Shown here piece after piece: positions 404 through 35,655 of a stretch of 49,481 nucleotides of DNA. Position numbers and translations under genes: made by a program. The stretch lies in the IMG/VR virus record IMGVR_UViG_3300045988_168456; one strand, 5' to 3'. Source of the stretch: a virus. Each line of letters starts with the position of its first letter. Position 1 is the stretch's first letter. A model generated the notes under the pieces. That model was given only the letters and a program-made list of their open reading frames with translations, was not told the DNA's origin and did no database searches.

Positions 404-672
404 ATTAAAATTCGCGTTATAGGAGTTGATATAATAGAAATAAATATAATATCTATCTCATTAATGAAAATAGCGAGAATGATAGCGAGAATAAGCGACG
501 TCCAAAAACTTAAACAAAAATCACAATCAAATAATTGAGAAATAAGCTTAGGGGCTTTTATAATTATCTCATCACGCATACCAATTTTTCCAATCAATAA
601 AATAATAAATGCTGCTACTAAGGCTATACATATTAAAGCCGAAAGCATTGTTATAAAATATATCGTTGACAT
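400..672 (-). CDS. Small membrane protein (2-3 predicted TM helices)
   Basis: 90-aa ORF with hydrophobic stretches (ICIALVAAFIILLIG, SLILAIILAIF). Translationally coupled to its neighbours on both sides. Confidence 0.5.
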   Translation of the reverse strand: MSTIYFITMLSALICIALVAAFIILLIGKIGMRDEIIIKAPKLISQLFDCDFCLSFWTSLILAIILAIFINEIDIIFISIISTPITRILI

Positions 673-3165: not shown

Positions 3166-4296
3166 TTATCCACCAACACCAGGCGCTGTAGCCGCGGGCT
3201 TAGTATTAACCGGATTGTCTTCAGAGTTGACAACGACCACAGGCTTAGCATAAACTGCATCTTCACTTGATACGTTGAATGCCAGAATAGGACTTGCCAA
3301 AGTGCTAGGTGCGCTGTTATGTGCGGTCAAGAAGGCCACATCAACAGCAAAGCCATAGTGCTCTTTACGAGTACGAGTCATATCAGCAGTAGCGGCCCCT
3401 GCGATAGTATTGTAGTCACCTACAGAATCGTAGAAGTATGTACCAACAGGCATATTCAACAGAGGCAAAGTAGCAATGCCCCACTCATGGCCATCACCAG
3501 AAACAGTTCCGAGCAAGCAGTCACGCTCGAAGCGGGTCAACATTCCAAGAGAGCCGGCATTTACGGCATAACCTTGGGCATACTTACCTTCGGTAGCTGC
3601 AATGTTGTTTGTCAGGTGAACAACCTTAGTACCGAATTCATTCTGCTTGTTTACGTCATTGTAAAGGCCGTGCTGCTGCAATTTACGCATAATAGACTCA
3701 ACACCGGGGTCACCTACAATGTGCAACTGGCCATAGAAGTCATTTGCTCCCATCATAACTTCAAGGTCACCAAATACGTTTTCACGCTCAGTCCACTTTG
3801 CATTGATGGCATTAGAAGACCAGTCATACAACAGCGGATTTTTCAAAACCTGTGTTTTGTTGGCTGCGAGAGCAGCAAGAGCAGCTTCATCAAGCTTTTT
3901 CGCAAAAGCATAGATGTACTTCATCATCTTGGTTTCAAAGTCCTTCTGAATGCCAATTTCGTTGTTCATGTACATTGCCGGAGCAATAGTAAATCCCCAC
4001 GCATAAGTGGCAAATGTGATTTGAACCATTTTAGAAGTATTTTCACTGTCGGCAATTGTCACTGTACGTGTGCTACCGATAGTAATATCAGCATCGTAGT
4101 CAATTACCGGAGTTTCCAACGTATTACCGATGGAAGTTCTTGCTTTTTGCTTCAGTTCCTCAGTGAGGATGCCAGTAGGGTCTTCAGACTGCACCATAAA
4201 AGCATTTAGCGCACCGTACCTACTGGGGCGATACTCAAACTTATCAAGGTTAGAGTTCGCACGAATGTTCTGGATACGTGTTAAAACTAGACTCAT
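3166..4296 (-). CDS. Major capsid protein
   Basis: 376-aa ORF directly after the coiled-coil scaffold gene and followed by a strong terminator. This is the typical size and position. Ends in PGVGG. Confidence 0.75.
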   Translation of the reverse strand: MSLVLTRIQNIRANSNLDKFEYRPSRYGALNAFMVQSEDPTGILTEELKQKARTSIGNTLETPVIDYDADITIGSTRTVTIADSENTSKMVQITFATYAWGFTIAPAMYMNNEIGIQKDFETKMMKYIYAFAKKLDEAALAALAANKTQVLKNPLLYDWSSNAINAKWTERENVFGDLEVMMGANDFYGQLHIVGDPGVESIMRKLQQHGLYNDVNKQNEFGTKVVHLTNNIAATEGKYAQGYAVNAGSLGMLTRFERDCLLGTVSGDGHEWGIATLPLLNMPVGTYFYDSVGDYNTIAGAATADMTRTRKEHYGFAVDVAFLTAHNSAPSTLASPILAFNVSSEDAVYAKPVVVVNSEDNPVNTKPAATAPGVGG

Positions 4297-8357: not shown

Positions 8358-8521
8358 AATTATTTATGCTTTAAATGTTAATATTACCGAGCAGCTACCC
8401 TTAACTTGCATCGAATTACCTATATTTGCTTTGAATAAATTTCTCCACGATGTAAATGTACTAATTTTCTCTATAAGATGTACAGCTTTTAACATTTTTT
8501 ATAGAGGCATTTTTATCTCAT

Positions 8522-8608
8522 ATTCTCGTACTATATTTATTCAAAGCTTATGATTTAATCAGTCATATATAATTAAAAACTCATAGATTACGAGAATAAT
8601 GCGAGAAT
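8522..8608. repeat. Inverted ATTCTCGTA / TACGAGAAT pair plus a tandem GCGAGAAT
   Basis: attctcgta at 8522-8530 and tacgagaat at 8589-8597, then gcgagaat at 8601-8608 (11-nt phasing). Intergenic, between the Zn-ribbon ORF and 7701..8357. Confidence 0.7.
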
Positions 8609-8614
8609 ATAAGC

Positions 8615-8782
8615 TTATAACGTTTTTATGCATTTATCACATATAGTTATTATTTTTCCATTCCTTATAATAACTTTACCACAATCATGTCTTAACTCTT
8701 TCATTGTAGGTTTATAATGTATATAATGGTTTATACAAACACCACATTTATCACATGTAACCTCATATACTTTTGTAATCAT
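8615..8782 (-). CDS. Small zinc-ribbon protein (55 aa; not in the ORF track)
   Basis: My translation is MITKVYEVTCDKCGVCINHYIHYKPTMKELRHDCGKVIIRNGKIITICDKCIKTL, with CDKC...CDKC pairs. The ATG is 4 nt after the TerL stop. Confidence 0.5.
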   Translation of the reverse strand: MITKVYEVTCDKCGVCINHYIHYKPTMKELRHDCGKVIIRNGKIITICDKCIKTL

Positions 8783-10359: not shown

Positions 10360-10932
10360 TTATTTCTTAGGTTGTGTATAGTTATACTTTATTTCTGCTG
10401 CTTTTCTTGCAGCTACTGCTTCTTCGAATGTGTTAAAATAGCCTAAGCAATCATACAGGGCTCTTCCGTTTTTTCTTTTACCATTCCCTATTGCTGCTAC
10501 CCACTTTTGTCGTCTTTTATGCCAATAAACTCCTGTATGGCCTGACGTATTATTTGTGTGCATTTTACGGTTTCTGCTGTTTTGTATACCAGATGCAAGG
10601 CGTAAGTTGTCAATTCTATTATTAAGGGTATTGCCATCTATATGGTCAATTTCTTTATTATCATCTGGCCATTTTCCATATTGATAAAACCATGCCAACC
10701 TATGCGCTTTATATACATTTTGGCCTATTACTATATTAGAATATCCTTTATGGTCTATAGTAATACCAGCTATATCTCCTACATTAGGGCTATCTTTTCG
10801 TTTACTACTTGCATATTTCCATCTAAATACGCCGGTTTCCGGATTATAGTCTAATATAGATAATAAGTACTCGTGCGAAAGAGCATATTCTTTCTCTTTC
10901 AAAGCTACAAAATTGTTGTCTGTTAGTGCCAT
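10360..10932 (-). CDS. HNH homing endonuclease with an AP2 DNA-binding domain
   Basis: DHIDGNTLNNRIDNLRL (HNH_3 type), followed by SGHTGVYWHKRRQKWVAAI...LGYFNTFEEAVAARKAAE (AP2 type). Inserted between the terS candidate and terL. Confidence 0.85.
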   Translation of the reverse strand: MALTDNNFVALKEKEYALSHEYLLSILDYNPETGVFRWKYASSKRKDSPNVGDIAGITIDHKGYSNIVIGQNVYKAHRLAWFYQYGKWPDDNKEIDHIDGNTLNNRIDNLRLASGIQNSRNRKMHTNNTSGHTGVYWHKRRQKWVAAIGNGKRKNGRALYDCLGYFNTFEEAVAARKAAEIKYNYTQPKK

Positions 10933-10949: not shown

Positions 10950-11738
10950 TTATTTAATTAAAGTATCTCTTATTACAATATAAGCCTCTCGCGATATTGG
11001 CACGTTTGGAATAATACCTGTTTGGAGTTGTTGCTGCTCAGGTAAATTAAGTTGCATTTGACCTTTTCCGAATACACGGTCCCAAAGCTTCTCAACTGTT
11101 TCTATATTGCCTAATTTTGCATCTTCTTGTAGGCGCTTTATAACTGTCTTGATAACAATTGGTATTTTCTTATTATTATATAATGCTGCAAGTTGGGCCT
11201 CATTACATGTTAATAAACAAGCCAATAAATTAGCCGTATCTTGCTTTGTAAGTTGGACGCTTAAATTAATATTAAGGCTAGTAAGAAGTTTTGTTATTTC
11301 AGGTCTTGATGCTCCTTGCAATTGAAGTGCTGAACGTATAGCTGATGAATATGAGCCTTTGCCAGAATTATGACGTTCTGCTAATTCTGTTGCTTCAAGC
11401 GGCTCTATAGTCTCAGCTTCAAGTGCCTCAATAGCATCAATCCGTTTTTGCTGCTCTGCAATACGTTTTGCTTGAAGCTCTGTTTGGCCATCTGGTATTT
11501 CTTCGATACCGAGTTCCTCTGCTAATGATTGGCGTTTTTGTTGTTTTGCCTTAAGATTACGAAGCCTCTGCTTCTCAATATATTTAATACGAGCCAATTC
11601 TTTTGCATCGGCTTTTGCCTTAATGCGAGTGGCCTCTTGTTCCACAAGTTTAGATGTATCTGGATTAGACATTCCAGGGACTGTTGGGCGTGATGGCAAT
11701 ATGTCTGATAAGTCTTTTGCTATTTTATCTGTTTTCAT
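10950..11738 (-). CDS. Terminase small subunit candidate
   Basis: 262-aa ORF upstream of TerL, separated only by the endonuclease. Charged coiled-coil N-terminal half. Called by position only. Confidence 0.5.
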   Translation of the reverse strand: MKTDKIAKDLSDILPSRPTVPGMSNPDTSKLVEQEATRIKAKADAKELARIKYIEKQRLRNLKAKQQKRQSLAEELGIEEIPDGQTELQAKRIAEQQKRIDAIEALEAETIEPLEATELAERHNSGKGSYSSAIRSALQLQGASRPEITKLLTSLNINLSVQLTKQDTANLLACLLTCNEAQLAALYNNKKIPIVIKTVIKRLQEDAKLGNIETVEKLWDRVFGKGQMQLNLPEQQQLQTGIIPNVPISREAYIVIRDTLIK

Positions 11739-11743
11739 ATTAG

Positions 11744-12493
11744 TTAATTTTTATTTATAAATTCTTGTTGTTTATTAAGCAAACTTTCTGCTCTTCGTTT
11801 TGCTTCTGTTTCTGAAAGCTGTTTTACTTTTATGCGGTTACTTTCCGGTATATCTATTATATCGTATTTTTCATAAGACCATATATACCCACCAGCTGTT
11901 TTTATATGCTTATTACAGCACATGCATATATTACTCGCTTGTATTCCTGAGTGGTATGATGCATCATTTATCGAGTTATATTCTTCTATAAATAAGCCAG
12001 AATTTATATCATACTTATACACATTTTTAGGTTTTCTTCCTTTTGGACCTTTTTTCAATGATTCTATATGAAGTGCGGCGCTTTTGCTTACATTTTCTAT
12101 CAATTCATTGTGTAAAGTAAAGGCGTATGGCTTTTCATCATTATTTACTAAAAGCAAAAAATTATACCCATAGGGATAATAAGTCATATTGCTTTTTATC
12201 AATTCATATTTGTTCTTTAATAACTCTGCTTTGCTATCTTTAAATACGCCTTTTACCTCTACTGTTATGTATTCGCTATTTAGAAATGATTGCCTAAGGT
12301 CAACGCTTTCTACTTTTGGGCTAAGAATCTTTTTCGCGAGTGATATTATGCCTTTTCGTACTGTCCAATCTAGTGTATGACAAATAATAATTTTGCTATC
12401 ATATTCAAATTCTACAGTAAATATAGCCCATTCTGTTAAGAGGGAATTTATGTTTCCAACTAAATCCACCTGTATACCTTCTATGTTTACCAT
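11744..12493 (-). CDS. Homing-endonuclease-like protein (C-terminal NUMOD/IENR-type DNA-binding module; N-terminal domain unrecognised)
   Basis: VYKYDINSGLFIEEYNSINDASYHSGIQASNICMCCNKHIKTAGGYIWSY matches the V.QYD..G..I..F.S..EA......I...C.....K.A.G..W pattern of phage homing-endonuclease DNA-binding modules. First gene of the leftward operon. Confidence 0.45.
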   Translation of the reverse strand: MVNIEGIQVDLVGNINSLLTEWAIFTVEFEYDSKIIICHTLDWTVRKGIISLAKKILSPKVESVDLRQSFLNSEYITVEVKGVFKDSKAELLKNKYELIKSNMTYYPYGYNFLLLVNNDEKPYAFTLHNELIENVSKSAALHIESLKKGPKGRKPKNVYKYDINSGLFIEEYNSINDASYHSGIQASNICMCCNKHIKTAGGYIWSYEKYDIIDIPESNRIKVKQLSETEAKRRAESLLNKQQEFINKN

Positions 12494-12532
12494 ATTTATA
12501 ATTATTTTTTATATTAATTAAGCTTTATGCTA

Positions 12533-12616
12533 CAAATGTATAAAACTATATTAGAATATAAAAATTCTCGCAATTATTTTTTATATTAAAATATAAGTAT
12601 GTAAATTTTTCTATTC
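12533..12616 (-). promoter_or_regulatory. Candidate Bacteroidota-type promoter of the structural operon
   Basis: The minus strand reads TACATTTG (TAnnTTTG -7 box, plus 12533-12540) about 40 nt upstream of ATG 12493. The AAATTTTTCTAT element at 12603-12616 is shared with two other operon heads. Confidence 0.5.
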
Positions 12617-13076
12617 TCGTAGAAAATAATTCTATTCTCGCGTAAACAATAAACGAAATAAACTATGACTTCCTTCCTAATTTATTGAGTTCCTAGTTTG
12701 AATTATTAGATTTATCCCTATTAATTCTATTAATTCTATCTAACAACTCATTTATGTTCTCCTTAAATCTTCTTGTTTACATTGTTTATAGTACATATAA
12801 CTTGTTGAAAATCAATCACTTATCGAGAAACAATTCATTGTTTATTTTGTTTCTTATTGTTTCTCTTGCGAGAATGCCATTTTGCTAATTCCCTATTAAG
12901 CATAAGGGGCCTAAATTGATATTTGTGAGAATGTATGCGAGAATGAGAATTTATGAGCCTCTGGGCCTTGCTCATACTTATATTATGATTTGTTAGCCAG
13001 TTTGCGAGAATGACTTGAGGCCAAAAAAATTTTCTGGCTATGGATATGGTTCTATATACTATATATAGGGGCACCC

Positions 13077-13117
13077 AGGCATTGCAGCAGGGGGCCTAGG
13101 CATTGCAGCAGGGGCCT
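13077..13117. repeat. GC-rich tandem direct repeat AGGCATTGCAGCAGGGG(G)CCT x2
   Basis: Units at 13077-13097 and 13098-13117 differ by one G. Embedded in AT-rich non-coding DNA. Confidence 0.9.
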
Positions 13118-13632
13118 AATTTCTGAATCGGCGAAATTTATTTGGTTAAATAGCTTTAAGCCTGATAGCCTCATTCGTTAATTATGGTTTAATTCGTTAA
13201 AGGTTGTTAGCCTGTCAGCCTGTTAACAACTCTTAACTAAAATAATTTTCAGGTTCTAAACCATTTACAGGCACACAGGCAATCAGCCAATAAAGTTTAA
13301 CGAAAATTTAACACTTCCTAACTAAATATATTTTCAGGTTTCAAATATTTTATTACTTGATAGGCATAAAATGATTATTTCAACTTATTAACAAAACAAC
13401 CGAGAAATTTAATACGATTTAACCCAAAAAAATCATGAAAAATTTTTCTAATTTAAAAATTATTCGTATATTTACATATCGGAAATAACAAACATACCAC
13501 TGGTTATTAAACATAGTTTAACAGTTTCATTAACGAAATTTAACCATAAATATTTTTCCGGTTAAAATAAAATTAGTACTTTTACAATATAAATAAAACG
13601 GAAATAATATGAATAATTAAAATATAACAGCA

Positions 13633-13989
13633 ATGAAAATTAACAGAAATTATCATTTTGTCCTGACAGTTCTGGACAGCGAGAAAATTGTAGCAGGAGA
13701 AATAAGCATTGAAAATAATGCAGTATCGGGCGAGAGAATATTTGCCAGCGAATGCCACTACTATGCCGAGAAAAATATTATTGAGTGCATTAAAGATGCA
13801 GCCAAGAGAGATGAACTGGGCGAATATTATAATCACACTTATTGCATTTACAAAGAGGACAAGCCGAAAAAAGAAATTACTGAGCGCGAAGAAGGCGACA
13901 AGAAAATCACAGAGACAAGAGAAATACCCGGAAAAGCTATGCTACTCGAAATAATAACAGTAGACGAGTGTGGGGTGACTATCCGATAA
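13633..13989 (+). CDS. Early protein, unknown function
   Basis: 118-aa ORF with an ATG start. First rightward gene after the control region. The overlapping alternative frame 13709..13954 cannot be excluded. Confidence 0.5.
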   Translation: MKINRNYHFVLTVLDSEKIVAGEISIENNAVSGERIFASECHYYAEKNIIECIKDAAKRDELGEYYNHTYCIYKEDKPKKEITEREEGDKKITETREIPGKAMLLEIITVDECGVTIR

Positions 13990-14127
13990 GGATAGTCACA
14001 GCCCTCTCGGGAGAACTCTACACAAGAGACGGCAGTCCGACTCTGCCGGAGGGCACAATTGGCAATATTGCTGAGAGAATTAAAATAAACAGTAATATAA
14101 ACAAGAGAATAACGGGAGAATACAGTT

Positions 14128-14478
14128 ATGACAAAAAACTATTACAGGAGTGATTACTCCGACAAACAGTGGAAAGCCTTAATTGACAAGGCCACGGAAC
14201 TGGGTTGCCAGATAACCTATAGCAAATACGGCAACATAGTAACAATTGACAGCACAGACCGAGAGAATTCTATTCTTAAATCGGTTGGTGCAGGAGAAGA
14301 ATATAGAGTTATGTGGGCAGACCATATCCATAACATGCTGCAGGAGAGCACGGACTTAAGAACGTGGAAAGTACAGCCTAAGAGATACCACCGCAGCTAT
14401 TGTCCGACTATCTGCAGGAGTCAGAAGTCAGCAGAACATGAGCAGGAGCGTCTCGAGAGAAATTACAAACTGATATGA
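14128..14478 (+). CDS. Early protein, unknown function
   Basis: 116-aa ORF with an ATG start. GC is clearly above the genome average (about 47% in a hand-counted 60-nt sample). Confidence 0.5.
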   Translation: MTKNYYRSDYSDKQWKALIDKATELGCQITYSKYGNIVTIDSTDRENSILKSVGAGEEYRVMWADHIHNMLQESTDLRTWKVQPKRYHRSYCPTICRSQKSAEHEQERLERNYKLI

Positions 14479-14487
14479 AGCAAGCAT

Positions 14488-14730
14488 GTGAAAAATATAA
14501 AGCTATTCAAGAGAAATAACCAATACTATTTAACAAATATGGAAACAACAGTTTTTTATGTAGCAATTGCCTATGATGACGGCATTTTCAATCCTACAGT
14601 TGTAGAGAAGTTTGATAATAAAGCAGACGCAGACAGTTATGCAGCTCTTATGTGTCGTTCAAAGCAACGCCGGTACATTGTGCTTAAGCAAGTAACACAA
14701 TGGGACAGCATTTCTCGAAAAAATGCATGA
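14488..14730 (+). CDS. Early protein, unknown function (GTG at 14488, or ATG at 14539)
   Basis: 80-aa ORF, co-directional with and closely spaced after 14128..14478. Confidence 0.45.
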   Translation: MKNIKLFKRNNQYYLTNMETTVFYVAIAYDDGIFNPTVVEKFDNKADADSYAALMCRSKQRRYIVLKQVTQWDSISRKNA

Positions 14731-14989
14731 CCTTAGCTGCTGCGGATAGAAATGATATTCGTGGGACAGTATCAAGCGAAGCGGATTTTAGGAGCGACAT
14801 CTACAGCGACGCTAAGTTTAACCTAATTGATAAAAATTTACAGTAATATGGTAACAGTAAAATTTTCAACGCATAGAGCGGAAACACTATTTTTGATGCC
14901 AACTATTGCGATAAAGCAATACAATTCAGAAACAGCAATAAGATTTGTATTTTTACGCGGTGTATTTAATATAGAAATAGACAAGTATT

Positions 14990-15247
14990 ATGGCAAAAAG
15001 TGAAATATTTGTAATAGCTTATAGGCTTGAAGCTTATAATAATTATGATGCCTTAGACGGCTTCATGGAAGCAATTTGCGATTATGCAATAGTATCTAAA
15101 GAAACAGATTACGCGCTTACAGTAGTAGCATCTTCAGAAGCCTTAAGCACGTCAAGATTGGCAAATACGGCTTATAAATATTTTGGCAAAGAAGGGTATA
15201 CTATAAGTACTCTCGGGCTTTTAGGGCCGTTTAAGAAATTCAATTAA
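14990..15247 (+). CDS. Early protein, unknown function
   Basis: 85-aa ORF with an ATG start. Confidence 0.45.
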   Translation: MAKSEIFVIAYRLEAYNNYDALDGFMEAICDYAIVSKETDYALTVVASSEALSTSRLANTAYKYFGKEGYTISTLGLLGPFKKFN

Positions 15248-15372
15248 TATTCTTTAACATAAAACTTAGAAAAAAAAGTTCCAAAGCGGCTTAATAATTC
15301 AAAAAAATATAGTACATTAGCACTATCATAATTAATACATATTATTTAATAACAATTTAAAATTACAGTATT

Positions 15373-16488
15373 ATGGCAACAAAGAAATTTTCACAGATGA
15401 CAACGAAGAAACTGAATGCTCTTTTGGCAACAGCAAGTGACGAAGACAAAAAGGCTATTGAAGCCGTACTTACAGCTCGTGAACAAGCTACTAAACCAGC
15501 TGCAGAAGAGATTTCTATACCTACGCCGGGCCCGGTTGAAGATGTACTAATAAACGAAGTTAGTCCTGAAGAAGAAGCAGCTATTAAAGCAGCTGAAGAA
15601 AATGGCGGAATCAATCCTATGTATAACGGTAGTAAATCAACTTTGGAAAAGAAGCCGAAAATGACCGACGAGGAACGCCATGCATTGGCTGAAGAACTGA
15701 AGAAGAATGTTAATCATCGTTGTCAAGCAGTTCCTTTCAATACTGCAGAATGGGTTGATGGTTATATAGCTGGAGTAATTGAAGAAAAGCGCAGTGGCAA
15801 AATATTATACGCAATCAAGACAGATGATGGGCGCCGTATTGTAAAAGTACACGACAGCAACCTTATTCGTATCTTAGATGAAGTAATTGAGCCGGAAAAG
15901 AAAACCCGTACGCGTAAAGCAAAAGACCCAGCAGACGAAGTTGAATGGACACCTGAAGCAATAGCTGAAGAAATTAACGAAGTTATTGGCAATGTTGGTA
16001 AAACCATAGAACTTGAAAAATACCGCACAACAGATGAGAATGGTGAAGAACATGCCGAAGTAATAATAGGCCGTATTGTGGCAATTGTTCCTGACAAACG
16101 AGCTAAGCGACTACTTTATCGTATTTCAGTTCCTGCACCTGTTGAAGGTAATCCGCTTGCAACAAAGACTATGCATAAAGTTGTAAAAGCTGAAGGCATT
16201 AAAATTGCTGAAGAATTTGATAAAGAAGGCGCACAGCTTAATGCTAAGTATACGGAACGTCGTGAGGCTGCTGCTGCTCGCACTCCGCTTACTCCGCAAG
16301 ACCGTTACATACGCTGTGAGGAAAATGTGAAAAAAGCGGAAGAAAAATTGCAAAAAGCACAGGAAGAACTGGAAGCTAAAAAGAAACAGCTTGAAGATGC
16401 AAAGAAAGAGCTGGATGAGTATCTTGCCAGTCAGGCACAAGAAAGCTCAGCTGCTGGAGTTTCAGAAGAGGTAGACCTTCTTGCGTAA
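15373..16488 (+). CDS. Acidic, Lys-rich early protein with a C-terminal coiled coil
   Basis: 371-aa ORF followed by a canonical intrinsic terminator. EEKLQKAQEELEAKKKQLEDAKKELDE near the C-terminus. No family recognised. Confidence 0.65.
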   Translation: MATKKFSQMTTKKLNALLATASDEDKKAIEAVLTAREQATKPAAEEISIPTPGPVEDVLINEVSPEEEAAIKAAEENGGINPMYNGSKSTLEKKPKMTDEERHALAEELKKNVNHRCQAVPFNTAEWVDGYIAGVIEEKRSGKILYAIKTDDGRRIVKVHDSNLIRILDEVIEPEKKTRTRKAKDPADEVEWTPEAIAEEINEVIGNVGKTIELEKYRTTDENGEEHAEVIIGRIVAIVPDKRAKRLLYRISVPAPVEGNPLATKTMHKVVKAEGIKIAEEFDKEGAQLNAKYTERREAAAARTPLTPQDRYIRCEENVKKAEEKLQKAQEELEAKKKQLEDAKKELDEYLASQAQESSAAGVSEEVDLLA

Positions 16489-17317
16489 ACTGCTATAGAT
16501 AAATTTCTGTTAAACACCTCGAAGAAAGCTGCTCTGTGAAGAGCGGCTTTTCTTTTATGCCGTATATTTAATTGATATACGGTATTTTTTATATAACAGT
16601 TTTATATGTCAAAATATGTAAACTCATAGAAACATGCTTCTTTCGCGTTCTAAGGAACTTTCATATCTGAGATATACTATAATATAGGTTAACTCAATTC
16701 GATGCGATAGAGGTTAAAAGAAGTATATCTATCAATATATATTATGACTTCATAAGAATATATTAATGCATAGACTTTCCTGAACTTTAAGTTACCAAGC
16801 AGTTATATAAATAGCTGTTAAATTTATGACTAAAAAGTTGACTCATTTTCGCGCGTTCTAGGACACTTTTATTTGAGAGTCATAGGAATTATCATTCTCA
16901 AAAAGAAATGATGAGAGAATGAATGAAAATAATGAAATTTCATATATCTCCAAGGCATTTAGAGTTCTATATTTTTATATTAAAGCTGCAATAAACCAGT
17001 AAAAATTTTTATGTTAAAGCTTGTAAAACAGTAATTCGTATTAAGATTATTATGTATTTTAGCTTATAAGAGAATAAAGTAAAACTGTTAAAAAATGTTA
17101 CATGCTAGAATACATAAAAGCTGCATGACCGCTATAATTAAGCAGTTTATGCTTAAGCACATAAAACACATATACAGTATGTTACGTAGCAATTGTCCAC
17201 ACTGGACTCCATACGTGGTACAGGAAATAGCCGAGAGAATATTTGCCACAATTGGACAGGAGAATATCACAAGCCTCTAACAAGAGAAATGTTGAACAAA
17301 AATAAACAAGAGAATAT
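16489..17317. promoter_or_regulatory. 0.8-kb largely non-coding region with two TTCGCG(CG)TTCTA(A)GGA boxes
   Basis: Boxes at 16642-16656 and 16848-16863, with similar flanks (ACTCAT upstream, TGAGA downstream). Only short doubtful ORFs are present (17088..17270 minus, 17095..17280 plus). Confidence 0.6.
16525..16556 (+). terminator. Rho-independent terminator
   Basis: aaagctgctc (16525-16534), loop tgtgaa, gagcggcttt (16541-16550). A 10-bp stem with one G-U pair, followed by tctttt. Confidence 0.8.
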
Positions 17318-17794
17318 ATGAGTGGCTTTGTATTAGATTATAGCAAAAAGCAAATATTACAGATAACAAATGATGCTTTTTACTATTTATATTATGGCGA
17401 AGAGCCGTTAGATGAAGACAATTTAGAAGAAGCCAATGAGGTATCTGAAATGTTTTCCAATAATTTTTATATTGAAGACGATTGGAAAATAGTTGATAAT
17501 TCAGACCTTATAGAATGCACATTTATTCCGTATATTGAAGACCGAGCTGATTATGATGAATATGAGGACCTTACCAAACATATTCAACAGCAAATAAAAT
17601 GGCTTGATGCAAATCATATTAGAGTATGGTGGTTTAACAACCAAACTGGAACGAGAGAATTACGCGGTGATTTTAAAGTTTACATTGATAAGTATGGGTA
17701 TAAATGTTTTCACACTGGTAATCAAGATGAAAGTTTTATAACAGGAAAAATGAGTTTATATTTTTTGAAGAATTTTAAAAAGCATATAGCTTAA
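17318..17794 (+). CDS. Acidic hypothetical protein
   Basis: 158-aa ORF with an ATG start, preceded by ataaacaagagaata, which also precedes ATG 14128. Confidence 0.55.
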   Translation: MSGFVLDYSKKQILQITNDAFYYLYYGEEPLDEDNLEEANEVSEMFSNNFYIEDDWKIVDNSDLIECTFIPYIEDRADYDEYEDLTKHIQQQIKWLDANHIRVWWFNNQTGTRELRGDFKVYIDKYGYKCFHTGNQDESFITGKMSLYFLKNFKKHIA

Positions 17795-17816: not shown

Positions 17817-17846
17817 AGCAGACTACAGAAAAGTAGTCTGCTTTTT
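17817..17846. terminator. Bidirectional intrinsic terminator between convergent genes
   Basis: agcagactac (17817-17826), loop agaaaa, gtagtctgct (17833-17842). A perfect 10-bp stem flanked by an A-run and a T-run. Sits between 17318..17794 (+) and 17845..18567 (-). Confidence 0.8.
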
Positions 17847-18567
17847 ACATTAAGTTTTCATCTTCTTCTACAACAAGAGAATAGCCAATTCCTCGTATAG
17901 TTTCTATTACTATTCTACTATCCATTTTAAGCATATTTCGCAGCATACATATATGGACATCTAAGCTACGTTTATTAAAGTAGTTATCATCAGTCCATAT
18001 TTGTTGCATGAGTATTTTCTTAGGTAACGTTTCATTTTTATAAGCACACAATAAAGCAAGAACTTGACTTTGTTTATTATTAAGCTGTGTTTTTACATTG
18101 CCTATAGTAAGAATTTTGTTTATAGTATTAAACATATAATCACCTATCTTATAAGATGGCTCTATACCTCTCACTTGCACACCACATCTTTTTAGAACAG
18201 CTTTTATTCTTCTTATAAGTTCTTCAATATTGTATGGCCTTATAATATAATCATCTACACCTTCATCAAACGCTTCAATAACATACTCATATCGAGCTTT
18301 ATCTGATACCATTATTATAGGTATTTTATTATCCGATTTGCGTAAAAATTTTAGCGGCTTTAACATCATAGAGGTATCTGTTGTTTTATAATGGCTTAGT
18401 ATACATAAATCATAGTTTTTTTCTTTGATTTTATCCAATATATTATTCTCAGTTGATGTTATTACTTGAAAGCCGTTATACACCAAGTAATCTACCATAA
18501 TTTTACAATCTTCATCTTGGTATATTAAAATTCTCGGTAATGCTAATTTTGTATTATTATCTTTCAT
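17845..18567 (-). CDS. Atypical OmpR/PhoB-family response regulator (receiver plus winged-helix domain; phospho-acceptor Asp replaced by Ser)
   Basis: Receiver-like RILIYQDED...YDLCILSH...IPIIMVSD...GVDDYIIRPY. C-terminal trans_reg_C pattern LNNKQSQVLALL...RSLDVHICMLRNML...IETIRGIGYSL. Confidence 0.85.
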   Translation of the reverse strand: MKDNNTKLALPRILIYQDEDCKIMVDYLVYNGFQVITSTENNILDKIKEKNYDLCILSHYKTTDTSMMLKPLKFLRKSDNKIPIIMVSDKARYEYVIEAFDEGVDDYIIRPYNIEELIRRIKAVLKRCGVQVRGIEPSYKIGDYMFNTINKILTIGNVKTQLNNKQSQVLALLCAYKNETLPKKILMQQIWTDDNYFNKRSLDVHICMLRNMLKMDSRIVIETIRGIGYSLVVEEDENLM

Positions 18568-20948: not shown

Positions 20949-21602
20949 TTATTCTTTTTTCATGCTAAAGTGTTTTTCATATATATGTAAGTCATGCGCA
21001 AAGTGGTAATATGTGCCTATTGGTACACCGAGCTCATCTGCAACTAATTGTTGAAGCTTTGTCCAACAATACTGGTCATTGCAAAAACCATAAACCAAAT
21101 CATTGCTTCGCATAGTTACGCACATATCAAGAGTTCCTATTTGAGGCTTAATATCAAATCCGACTGATAACGTACAGGGTGTATCATACTTATAGTCATC
21201 TTTTTCTTTGCCATCAAATATAGTAAACCAAGCTTGGCGAGTATCTTTATTTTCTCTAAGCTGTTTAATACACTTTTCTAATTGATTATTACGAGTCCAT
21301 TGCCACCCATAATTAGAATTGACAATATTATTCCCATTATGCATTTTATCCCATATAGGAGCATATTTTTTAATTTCTTCAACGCTTCTATTACATGACA
21401 TATACCAAGCAAATTCTCGCTCTGCATATCGTTCGCTAAATTTACGCCATTTTGTTGTTATGATACGTTGCTGAGGATTAAGTAAATAAAAACCAACATT
21501 GTAAATAGCTTTTGTTCCAACATTAGTATTTACTCCTTTACTCATGATAAAAGCATATAGGTTTTCAAAAGCCTCGGTAGCATTTTTATAAATCGTGTTC
21601 AT
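20949..21602 (-). CDS. Thymidylate-synthase-family pyrimidine C5 transferase (ThyA versus dCMP/dUMP hydroxymethylase or methylase not resolved)
   Basis: NYGWQWTRN, DTRQAW, catalytic-type TPCTLSVGF, MRSNDLVYGFCND and HDLHIYEKH match ThyA-fold motifs. It is short at 217 aa. Confidence 0.8.
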   Translation of the reverse strand: MNTIYKNATEAFENLYAFIMSKGVNTNVGTKAIYNVGFYLLNPQQRIITTKWRKFSERYAEREFAWYMSCNRSVEEIKKYAPIWDKMHNGNNIVNSNYGWQWTRNNQLEKCIKQLRENKDTRQAWFTIFDGKEKDDYKYDTPCTLSVGFDIKPQIGTLDMCVTMRSNDLVYGFCNDQYCWTKLQQLVADELGVPIGTYYHFAHDLHIYEKHFSMKKE

Positions 21603-22396: not shown

Positions 22397-22411
22397 AAGC
22401 TTAAAGTTTAT

Positions 22412-22496
22412 ATTCTCGCGCGTTCTAGAGCCCGCTTATTATTCCATTATTATTCAATCATCTATGTACTTAAAGCGCGATATCGCGCGCGAGAAT
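22412..22496. repeat. Inverted ATTCTCGCGCG / CGCGCGAGAAT pair enclosing a GCGCGATATCGCGC palindrome
   Basis: Arms at 22412-22422 and 22486-22496. 14-bp palindrome at 22475-22488. Intergenic, between the dut stop (22514) and the next ATG (22396). Confidence 0.85.
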
Positions 22497-22513: not shown

Positions 22514-23008
22514 TTAGTATGACCCAGTAGACCCGAGTGCTCCATCACCACGCTCAGATGGACGACTGAAAAGCTCTGATTCAGGAACTTCTTCAAGGTC
22601 TTCGTACGATACAGGTACGAGAATAAATTGTGCTATTTTCATACCCGGTTTGATAAGCACTTTAGCTCTACCTATATTTATAAGATGTATATGAATTTCA
22701 CCTTGGTAATCTTCATCTACAATCTTTGCTCCAAGGATAACAATACTCTCAAATGCTTCTGGCTTTGGCGTTCTATTAGCTCCAAGGCAAGCCCATTTAG
22801 AAGTTACAACTCCTGATTTATCAGAAGCCATGAGCATATATCCTTCTGGAATTTCCATCTTAATGCCAGACGGTATTAAAATGTCAGTTCCTGGATTTAG
22901 TATAAAACCTTTATTATCACCAAAATTAGGAACAAAAAAATCAATTCCTGCAGCTTTACCTGTTCCTCTCATTGGAGACTTTACATCTCTTACTTTCGAA
23001 TATTTCAT
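22514..23008 (-). CDS. dut: Trimeric dUTPase-family protein
   Basis: AAGIDFF (motif 1), IVDEDYQGEIHI (motif 3), KIAQFIL (motif 4), RGDGALGSTGSY (motif 5). Confidence 0.85.
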   Translation of the reverse strand: MKYSKVRDVKSPMRGTGKAAGIDFFVPNFGDNKGFILNPGTDILIPSGIKMEIPEGYMLMASDKSGVVTSKWACLGANRTPKPEAFESIVILGAKIVDEDYQGEIHIHLINIGRAKVLIKPGMKIAQFILVPVSYEDLEEVPESELFSRPSERGDGALGSTGSY

Positions 23009-34853: not shown

Positions 34854-34895
34854 CAAATATATAAACTATTCTCGAAAGAAAGAAATTTTTTTCTA
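34854..34895 (-). promoter_or_regulatory. Candidate Bacteroidota-type promoter of the replication operon
   Basis: The minus strand reads TATATTTG (plus 34854-34861) about 36 nt upstream of ATG 34818. The conserved TTCTCGAAAG...AAATTTTTTTCTAT element lies just upstream. Confidence 0.55.
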
Positions 34896-35171: not shown

Positions 35172-35564
35172 TTACCGCTTTATGAAATATTTTACACACA
35201 GCCATATAATTATTAAAACTATGGCAGCAATTAGGTATTCACCCATATTAATTTTTATCTTTTGCCATTTAGTAAGTTGAGCTTCTATAGGGTATGCAAT
35301 TTGAATTGTATCAACTTTTTCTTGCCAAAGTGTATCATGCTTTTCTATGTATTTATATACATATTTATACTTATTAAGATACACAGTATCGCCTTTATGT
35401 TCAATATAAATAGAATCTCTTTGATATATACTATCTATTTTAATTTTTGATATATACGTAGTATCTCTTTTAATTGTTTCTACTGGCATATATTGAATTG
35501 ATTTACAACTATATAGCACGGCAACTAAAAATACAAGTATAATTATTCTCACATATTCTCGCAT
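35172..35564 (-). CDS. Unimolecular spanin candidate (N-terminal lipoprotein signal plus C-terminal TM helix)
   Basis: MREYVRIIILVFLVAVLYSC is a lipobox-like signal. C-terminal YLIAAIVLIIIWLCVKYFIKR. Last gene of the holin-amidase cassette. Confidence 0.6.
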   Translation of the reverse strand: MREYVRIIILVFLVAVLYSCKSIQYMPVETIKRDTTYISKIKIDSIYQRDSIYIEHKGDTVYLNKYKYVYKYIEKHDTLWQEKVDTIQIAYPIEAQLTKWQKIKINMGEYLIAAIVLIIIWLCVKYFIKR

Positions 35565-35604: not shown

Positions 35605-35647
35605 AAAGTCATTCTCGTAATAATTTCTTATATGCGAGAATGACTTT
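35605..35647. terminator. 13-bp hairpin built from the CGAGAAT motif, between the amidase and spanin genes
   Basis: aaagtcattctcg (35605-35617), a 17-nt loop, cgagaatgacttt (35635-35647). Whether it acts as a terminator or a protein-binding site is unresolved. Confidence 0.45.
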
Positions 35648-35655
35648 TATGTATT

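Follow-up and report, generated by a model that had tools for sequence, protein, structure and literature searches.

Results

Organisation of the phage genome

The DNA analysed here, a stretch of 49,481 nucleotides referred to below as the window, represents a phage genome of ~49.4 kb whose positions 1-85 and 49397-49481 are identical (85 nt), as expected for a circular or terminally redundant assembly. A minus-strand gene beginning near position 402 crosses the end junction, and hence positions 1-400 are coding rather than intergenic. The GC content is ~33%, and genes are directed leftward except for an early-looking block at 13633-17794. Read leftward, HNH-like genes and a putative small-terminase gene are followed by terL, head, portal, tail, tape-measure, fibre and endolysin genes, and then by replication and nucleotide-metabolism genes, with a regulator gene last. 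The nearest isolates are the Bacteroides fragilis phages BF503P1/P2/P4, BF486P2/P3 and BF494P1 (portal identity 75%). Because of this relatedness, of the few Shine-Dalgarno-like sequences (at 4 of 63 genes) and of the TAnnTTTG boxes ahead of operons, we infer a Bacteroidales host; the MAG bin labels for the host are contradictory (Clostridia versus Bacteroidales). Neither an integrase nor a clear repressor was recognised among the proteins scanned against Pfam and PHROG, and a literature search found nothing on this phage family or its regulator. Bacteroides phages are abundant in the human gut virome; to our knowledge, their gene regulation is almost uncharted.

Several features of the genome are recorded here in their own right. 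An 85-nt tRNA gene (31697-31781, minus strand; Rfam tRNA score 47.6 bits) has a four-base anticodon (actt), its identity being given as undetermined by ARAGORN. The genome also encodes a thymidylate-synthase-family protein (20949-21602) and a dUTPase/dCTP-deaminase-like protein (22514-23008); in BF503P1 (contig L171, 40980-44539) the homologues are annotated as deoxycytidylate 5-hydroxymethyltransferase, in two copies, an annotation that hints at possible modified DNA bases in this phage family. HNH/AP2 and NUMOD-like genes (10360-10932 and 11744-12493) lie just upstream of terL in the window, and in ~14 relatives (L032-L042, L059, L062, L065) the terL match begins at query residue 85; the N-terminal part of terL is thus separated or replaced there, possibly by an intron or a homing-endonuclease insertion. 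In the early genes, the CGAGAGAAT repeats are coding repeats. The same may apply, as paralogous coding repeats, to a 17-nt identical stretch, CGAGAGAATATTTGCCA, found at 13731 and 17232 inside early ORFs 13633-13989 and 17095-17280, and to CGAGAGAA, which occurs 7 times in the window against 0.9 expected, mostly in the early block.

An over-represented octamer conserved in a phage family

Counting both strands of the window, there are 13 exact copies of the octamer GCGAGAAT/ATTCTCGC, compared with a mean of 0.97 (maximum 5) in dinucleotide shuffles of the window and 1.24 expected from an order-3 Markov model (p = 8.5e-10); by over-representation it ranks first among 17,909 8-mers. Exact count, shuffles and Markov model thus bear out the contrast between about one expected and 13 observed copies that had been drawn in a preliminary description of this DNA. 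The copy positions given there were also right, except for 12574, a typing error for 12564. Its tally of nine intergenic copies needs adjusting, as those at 473 and 485 are coding (ORF 400-672) and that at 35555 shares bases with the start codon of a gene for a lipoprotein. The 7-mer CGAGAAT occurs 22 times in the window, 16 of these outside long ORFs. Relative to leftward transcription, we call a copy reading GCGAGAAT the R orientation and one reading ATTCTCGC the L orientation. Along transcription, L always starts 6-30 nt past a stop codon and R lies ahead of the next gene.

Searching IMG/VR with terL yielded more than 190 relatives, nearly all with the octamer at 2-9 copies per 10 kb; its conservation extends to over 100 contigs of related gut phages. 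Five clusters of sites are common to relatives with terL identities of 75-99%:

Cluster 1, control region upstream of the terL operon: array, with 3-6 copies in relatives
Cluster 2, after terL: a pair of left arms 11 nt apart, with a right arm ~68 nt on
Cluster 3, near the end of a tail-proximal small ORF: 12-bp tandem
Cluster 4, after the endolysin gene: left arm, right arm, then a 10-bp tandem
Cluster 5, after the dUTPase gene: a left arm and, 77 nt away, a right arm

One further copy stands by itself:

21413-21420, minus strand: isolated octamer copy inside the thymidylate-synthase-like gene

This copy is retained in only one of three reconstructed relatives, the closest to the window, and is probably not functional. 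All four same-strand tandems noted earlier were confirmed, namely 475/487 (12 bp), 8592/8603 (11 bp), 12927/12939 (12 bp) and 35545/35555 (10 bp), and tandems at 10, 11 and 12 bp are kept in dozens of relatives; the pattern is short, and about a hundred chance matches would be expected in a collection-wide scan, a figure roughly estimated rather than computed. We conclude that the enrichment is real and functional, and that the octamer is a cis-element specific to this lineage, a large family of Bacteroides-type siphophages from the human gut.

A separate palindrome, TAAGCTTA, is present 16 times in the window (~4.8 expected) and adjoins several octamer copies (at 8609-8618, 22397-22404 and 12517-12524).

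Inverted copies as stems of hairpins at module boundaries

In three intergenic regions, copies of opposite orientation lie within structured elements:

35605-35648, minus strand: hairpin directly after the endolysin stop codon, in which ATTCTCGC (35634-35641) pairs with ACGAGAAT (35611-35618)
22412-22496, minus strand: structured element of ~87 nt after the dUTPase gene, whose inverted octamers (22489-22496 and 22412-22419) make a 12-bp closing stem
8515-8620, minus strand: structured element after the terL and 55-aa genes, with left arms L1 (8601-8608) and L2 (8590-8597), 11 nt apart, and a right arm at 8522-8529

The endolysin hairpin has a stem of 13-15 bp, made up of L and the first R, with a free energy of -18 kcal/mol in the window and -25.8 kcal/mol in common relatives, and the stem extension covaries (ACC/GGT, GCC/GGC, GTC/GAC, GCT/AGC). 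The combination of a hairpin and a U-run after a stop codon, as in intrinsic terminators, was found at 35605-35648 only, the terL and dUTPase elements being without a U-run. Since the stem is bracketed by A5 and U5 in most relatives, the element is predicted to be a bidirectional intrinsic terminator. Among close relatives (L172-L251) its 15-nt loop is found both ways round, 20 distinct sequences having one orientation and 10 the exact reverse complement, which suggests repeated inversion, or template switching, between the octamer arms of opposite orientation.

For the dUTPase junction, an alignment of 48 distinct relatives (A1) was folded with RNAalifold. The resulting 23 pairs are formed in 99.4% of the cells, compared to 23-63% in controls with a slid 3' partner, and 11 pairs have changes on both sides. 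All pairs of the inner helices covary, whereas 10 of the 12 pairs of the closing stem never vary. In L093, a GC to AT change has affected both arms together, so that pairing is kept but the octamer is not. Where only one side of a pair has changed, the result is mostly a G.U pair on the mRNA strand (~35 cells, versus 7 with C.A, many cells sharing ancestry), an excess that speaks for RNA in sense orientation. From the end of the right arm it is 15 nt to the next ATG. Here and at the endolysin junction, R is 0-18 nt away from a start codon, and no promoter was recognised downstream, an arrangement that fits better with a role at the RNA level.

At the terL junction, 40 distinct relatives' sequences fall into eight classes with unrelated interiors, all of which fold with R paired to L1 or L2 and with an inner hairpin. 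The right arm of this junction also lies upstream of a promoter, ~60 nt from the -7-like box for the head genes in the window and 61-64 nt from the corresponding box, TATATTTG, in relatives. Rfam covariance models found nothing at these elements even at E <= 10, the tRNA alone passing.

The inverted intergenic pairs are thus very probably genuine RNA structures, and it is the covariation that argues for pairing at the RNA level. Inverted copies that face each other are therefore more than operator pairs: in these three regions they are stems of conserved hairpins, one of them a terminator and the other two longer and covarying. Two other accounts of the inverted pairs were rejected: an invertible promoter, given that the 70-nt segment between the dUTPase arms is in one orientation in 48 of 48 distinct relatives, and a MITE or mobile element, given that the interiors of the three elements are unrelated.

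Could RNA pairing account for everything? On a purely RNA-level explanation, AUUCUCGC/GCGAGAAU would be a conserved stem, or a single-stranded tag, of terminators and of processing or stability hairpins, its reader would be an RNA-binding factor or nuclease (RNase III-type, antiterminator), and the OmpR-like protein described below would be unrelated. The strong covariation, the G.U bias on the mRNA strand, a canonical terminator built from octamers, the constant placement of left arms 6-30 nt past a stop codon and of right arms just ahead of the next gene, the joint change of both arms in L093, and the same hairpin architecture without the octamer in BF503P1 are all as this explanation would have it. 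What it leaves unexplained is, to begin with, the contrast within the hairpins themselves: inner helices covary freely while the octamer stem is nearly invariant, which argues that the stem is constrained both by pairing and by a sequence-specific reader. The copies outside the hairpins add to this.

Copies at promoters, in the control region and within genes

The copies relevant here, together with associated promoter boxes, are:

473-492, plus strand: two tandem copies, 12 bp in period, within the segment of ORF 400-672 that codes for the transmembrane part, the minus strand reading ATT CTC GCT ATC ATT CTC GC
12533-12540, minus strand: -7 promoter box of the Bacteroidetes type, TACATTTG, ahead of the terL operon, whose first gene has its start codon at 12493
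12564-12571, minus strand: octamer copy in R orientation, separated by exactly 23 nt from the downstream -7 box of the packaging/structural operon
12613-12641, minus strand: two further copies, ACGAGAAT at 12613-12620 and GCGAGAAT at 12634-12641, 21 bp apart, upstream of the late promoter
12868-13011, plus strand: octamer array in the divergent control region, with GCGAGAAT at 12868, GTGAGAAT at 12925, GCGAGAATGAGAAT at 12937 and GCGAGAAT at 13004
34868-34874, minus strand: variant copy with core TCGAGAAT, 6 nt upstream of a -7 box TATATTTG (34854-34861) that is followed by the replication-module operon
35545-35564, minus strand: tandem pair with a 10-bp period, GCGAGAAT at 35555-35562 and GTGAGAAT at 35545-35552, overlapping the start and first codons of the lipoprotein gene that comes after the endolysin terminator

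ORF 400-672 is a real gene, for a small membrane protein of the CDFCLSFW type. In its tandem, neither copy shows a synonymous change in the ATT and CTC codons among 44 distinct relatives, while 10 of 14 flanking codons vary, including at the base directly after each octamer (Fisher p = 0.023). In relatives without the motif, a different hydrophobic transmembrane segment is encoded at the site of the tandem.

At the late promoter, assigned like the others by consensus match only, the arrangement R-N23-TAnnTTTG recurs in 14 distinct relatives' sequences, which make up eight clusters with unrelated spacers; the L orientation had no equivalent fixed spacing to a TAnnTTTG box in the same scan of relatives. 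The bases just after R are TTTy and resemble a weak version of the TTTG -33 element, and R is thus located where an activator would replace or assist the -33. The site is a single clear half-site. An alternative promoter module for the terL operon in relatives has L 61-63 nt upstream of the box. Neither the 23-nt nor the 61-64-nt spacing, nor the unpaired tandems, nor the invariant coding tandem can be explained by pairing. For the purely RNA-level explanation there is the further difficulty that the octamer with the strict 23-nt spacing lies upstream of that promoter's transcription start, and it also leaves unexplained the partnerless arrays of three to six copies and the variable numbers of left and right arms in the control region; we therefore regard it as unlikely, if still the strongest of the rival explanations.

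The same observations bear on an explanation with no dedicated reader, in which a terminator/promoter cassette, with the octamer as its shared core, would have spread and be homogenised by recombination at mosaic junctions. The genes flanking the dUTPase and endolysin elements do vary, with a mosaic breakpoint right after the right arm, the terminator loop is found in both orientations (20 and 10 distinct sequences), and one variant, ATTCCCGC, recurs in both tandem left arms of L023. However, a core of 8-12 nt alone is common to the loci, with unrelated flanks and interiors, it is invariant at synonymous sites inside a gene, and its exact distance to the -7 box is kept across unrelated spacers. 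Of the explanations considered, this seems to us the least probable.

In the control region of 1.1 kb, the preliminary description had three ATTCTC cores facing four GAGAAT cores. The former (12564, 12613 and 12634) are indeed three, but the latter number five (12870, 12927, 12939, 12945 and 13006). Control-region copies in some relatives form 24-25-bp tandem units of TTTGCGAGAATGATTTG..., and in the clade of the window the octamer is fused there to a second repeated motif, AAATTGCCA, to which the ATTTTGCCA/ATTTTGACA-like repeats in the BF503P1 control region are similar. A scan of 12000-14000 for sigma-70 and terminator consensus sequences was uninformative for a Bacteroidetes-type host. The control region (12700-12870 and 13040-13630) also has TAAACAAT/ATTGTTTA iterons, TTTAAC repeats, TTTTCAGGTT repeats, a duplicated GC-rich block, GGCATTGCAGCAGGGG, and an inverted pair of GATTGATTTTCAAT, which is found directly after the dUTPase stop codon as well; contigs of many relatives break between ~13080 and 13430. 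The region is a candidate origin, packaging or early-promoter region.

These features are relevant to another explanation, that the octamer is bound by a different DNA-binding protein, either a host transcription factor or a phage protein such as the terminase small subunit or a replication initiator acting on the arrays near the genome end. The arrays adjoin a conserved GC-rich/TATA-rich block at which many of the contigs break, the octamer is fused to AAATTGCCA with a counterpart of similar ATTTTGCCA/ATTTTGACA in BF503P1, and the host differs from that of BF503P1, so that a host factor could explain presence versus absence of the motif. Yet the sites are spread over the genome at module junctions, not just near the end; the putative small-terminase gene (10950-11738) is conserved in relatives without the motif; and the one other candidate HTH gene of the phage (34402-34818, with a sub-threshold match to the Cro/C1 type) is also present in BF503P1. 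We consider such a protein improbable, somewhat more so than a purely RNA-level reader. That some sequence-specific DNA-binding protein reads the octamer is, on these sequence comparisons, somewhat more likely than not.

An atypical OmpR/PhoB-family protein as candidate reader

The regulator gene at the end of the leftward gene order encodes the most plausible such protein:

17845-18567, minus strand: atypical OmpR/PhoB-family regulator gene (receiver and winged helix), 240 aa

Its Pfam matches, Trans_reg_C (1.2e-16) and Response_reg (5.2e-9), confirm that the phage encodes an OmpR/PhoB-family winged-helix protein, as had been proposed. The protein aligns over its full length with PrrA and other OmpR-family structures, and its PDB matches include DrrD and BasR. 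The phospho-acceptor Asp is replaced by Ser in the window and by Ser or Gly in relatives, and the conserved Lys by Arg in all variants; no partner histidine kinase was found in Pfam and PHROG scans covering most of the larger ORFs. With the Asp replaced, the regulator is not a conventional two-component response regulator, and with no kinase seen either it would act without phosphorylation. In its C-terminal DNA-binding domain, the segment NKRSLDV(H/N), a putative recognition helix, is kept across variants at 54-90% identity, including those at only 54-69%. The homologues listed, down to ~70% identity, all have the same domain pair and the same length, and the longest contigs among them, ~50 kb, match the size of these phage genomes.

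Every motif-bearing relative in which the region is covered has the regulator gene. BF503P1, in contrast, is syntenic gene for gene without it and has a single octamer; its hairpin elements after terL and dut are closed by a different sequence, CTGGAAGAGCTTTT, present in two copies only. The regulator is the only recognisable DNA-binding gene that tracks the presence of the motif, a co-occurrence amounting to about one independent contrast (BF503P1), between lineages that differ in ~25 other genes, and leaving out the motif-poor relatives L023, L043 and L066-L079. The Cro/C1-type HTH match in 34402-34818 does not show such tracking, the gene being shared with BF503P1. A neighbour protein from BF503P1 had no IMG/VR relatives.

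Some relatives have other repeats. In L023 (terL 91% identical), 17-bp tandem arrays at 1-90 and 3874-4010 (GGGAACTCCCGCTGTAA five times and AGGGAACTCTTGCGCTT eight times) replace the octamer array, and both left arms of the terL junction read ATTCCCGC; the repeat and an early gene of L023 match their own contig only. The motif system may have changed or be decaying there. The more distant L069 and L070 have in their early region, without GCGAGAAT, 4-7 copies of TGCACnnCCCCGAGAGAAyTCC upstream of ATTTTG-like boxes, and at their terL junction TTAACA-N4-5-TTAACA followed by the standard TATATTTG promoter. In the regulator-less BF503P1 contig, the 7-mer ACAGTAG/CTACTGT is found 32 times, against 7 expected.

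The proposal that the octamer is an OmpR/PhoB-type operator stands in part. The enrichment, the conserved tandems, the encoded regulator, its co-occurrence with the motif and the strictly placed promoter-proximal copy agree with it. On the other side, many sites are single, the spacing is 10-12 bp, inverted copies are hairpin stems, and the Asp is lacking. In operators of this family, half-sites are repeated on one strand about 10-11 bp apart, centre to centre. The conserved tandems here have periods of 10, 11 and 12 bp, and there is just one copy at the late promoter and in each dUTPase arm, whereas a dimer of an OmpR-family protein usually requires two half-sites. That the OmpR-like protein is the reader we would put at close to, or slightly below, an even chance.

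Discussion

The model that we favour, to which we give about even odds as a whole, is that one octamer has two uses: as a DNA half-site for a phage-encoded regulator and as an RNA hairpin stem at module boundaries. At the DNA level, the octamer would be the recognition half-site of a phage-encoded sequence-specific protein, most likely the phosphorylation-independent OmpR/PhoB-family winged-helix regulator encoded at 17845-18567. The copy 23 nt upstream of the -7 box would adjoin the weak -33 region of the promoter of the packaging/structural operon; this is where PhoB (pho box) and T4 MotA (mot box) sit and activate promoters with a poor upstream element. Further copies would act in the arrays of the divergent control region, ~60-80 nt upstream of other promoters and as 10-12-bp same-strand tandems, and the regulator would turn late transcription on and possibly close early transcription. 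At the RNA level, as the covariation shows, two inverted copies in one leftward transcript pair into the basal stem of module-boundary hairpins: the bidirectional intrinsic terminator after endolysin and the two ~87-100-nt structures after terL and dUTPase.

In a stronger version, which we think unlikely, the octamer would be dual-coded throughout, as a DNA activator box or array for the early-to-late switch and as an RNA basal stem at every module junction, with occupancy coupled to termination or processing, for instance by regulator-controlled read-through. If true, the regulation of Bacteroides phages would have no described counterpart to such a coupled dual-coded octamer.

The analysis provides testable handles: a cis-element, a candidate trans-factor (Asp-less, OmpR-type and family-wide), a promoter architecture, and three intergenic RNA structures that covary and have no match in Rfam. 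Should the octamer indeed be read by the regulator, Bacteroides genetics would gain a portable phage activator/box pair and a terminator set, and there would be a case of phages having turned receiver-domain proteins into constitutive temporal regulators.

Comparison with known systems

The proposed system resembles PhoB and the pho box, and OmpR-family operators in general, in combining a regulator with receiver and winged helix with short half-sites of 6-8 bp, at some of the loci on the same strand about one helical turn apart, and, as for PhoB, in having one site that abuts or replaces a weak upstream promoter element. It differs in that the regulator is without the phospho-acceptor Asp and no partner kinase was seen, in having one clear half-site at the late promoter, a spacing of 10-12 bp and many inverted copies that double as RNA stems, and in a host promoter of the Bacteroidetes -33/-7 type. 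In missing the Asp, the regulator is like HP1043 (PDB match 2hqr), an atypical OmpR member.

With T4 MotA and the mot box it would share a phage activator box at a fixed distance upstream of a host-type element and a switch in temporal class; however, the protein families are unrelated, no AsiA-like co-factor was identified, and the box here is found outside promoters too. The stoperators of Cluster A mycobacteriophages are likewise short, asymmetric, multi-copy sites, located in intergenic gaps by stop and start codons and conserved within the cluster. Stoperators, though, are 13-14 bp long, number ~24-30 copies, always point the same way with respect to transcription and serve as binding sites for a temperate phage's immunity repressor, whereas the octamer has ~13-20 copies in both orientations and also pairs as hairpins; the single orientation that marks mycobacteriophage-type stoperators was not found here, nor was a clear repressor among the proteins scanned.

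As in intrinsic terminators and T7-type intercistronic RNase III sites, the hairpins come directly after stop codons at operon or module boundaries, and the ~87-100-nt elements resemble the irregular intercistronic processing hairpins that share sequence between sites; in contrast to these, a single 8-nt core is reused throughout and is also found unpaired, in tandem and at promoter positions. T4-type promoter-early stem-loops (PeSLs) likewise combine a repeated regulatory motif with a stem-loop at mosaic gene-module junctions (hyperplastic regions), but the phage family described here has no extended shared cassette, a short core alone being common to its sites.
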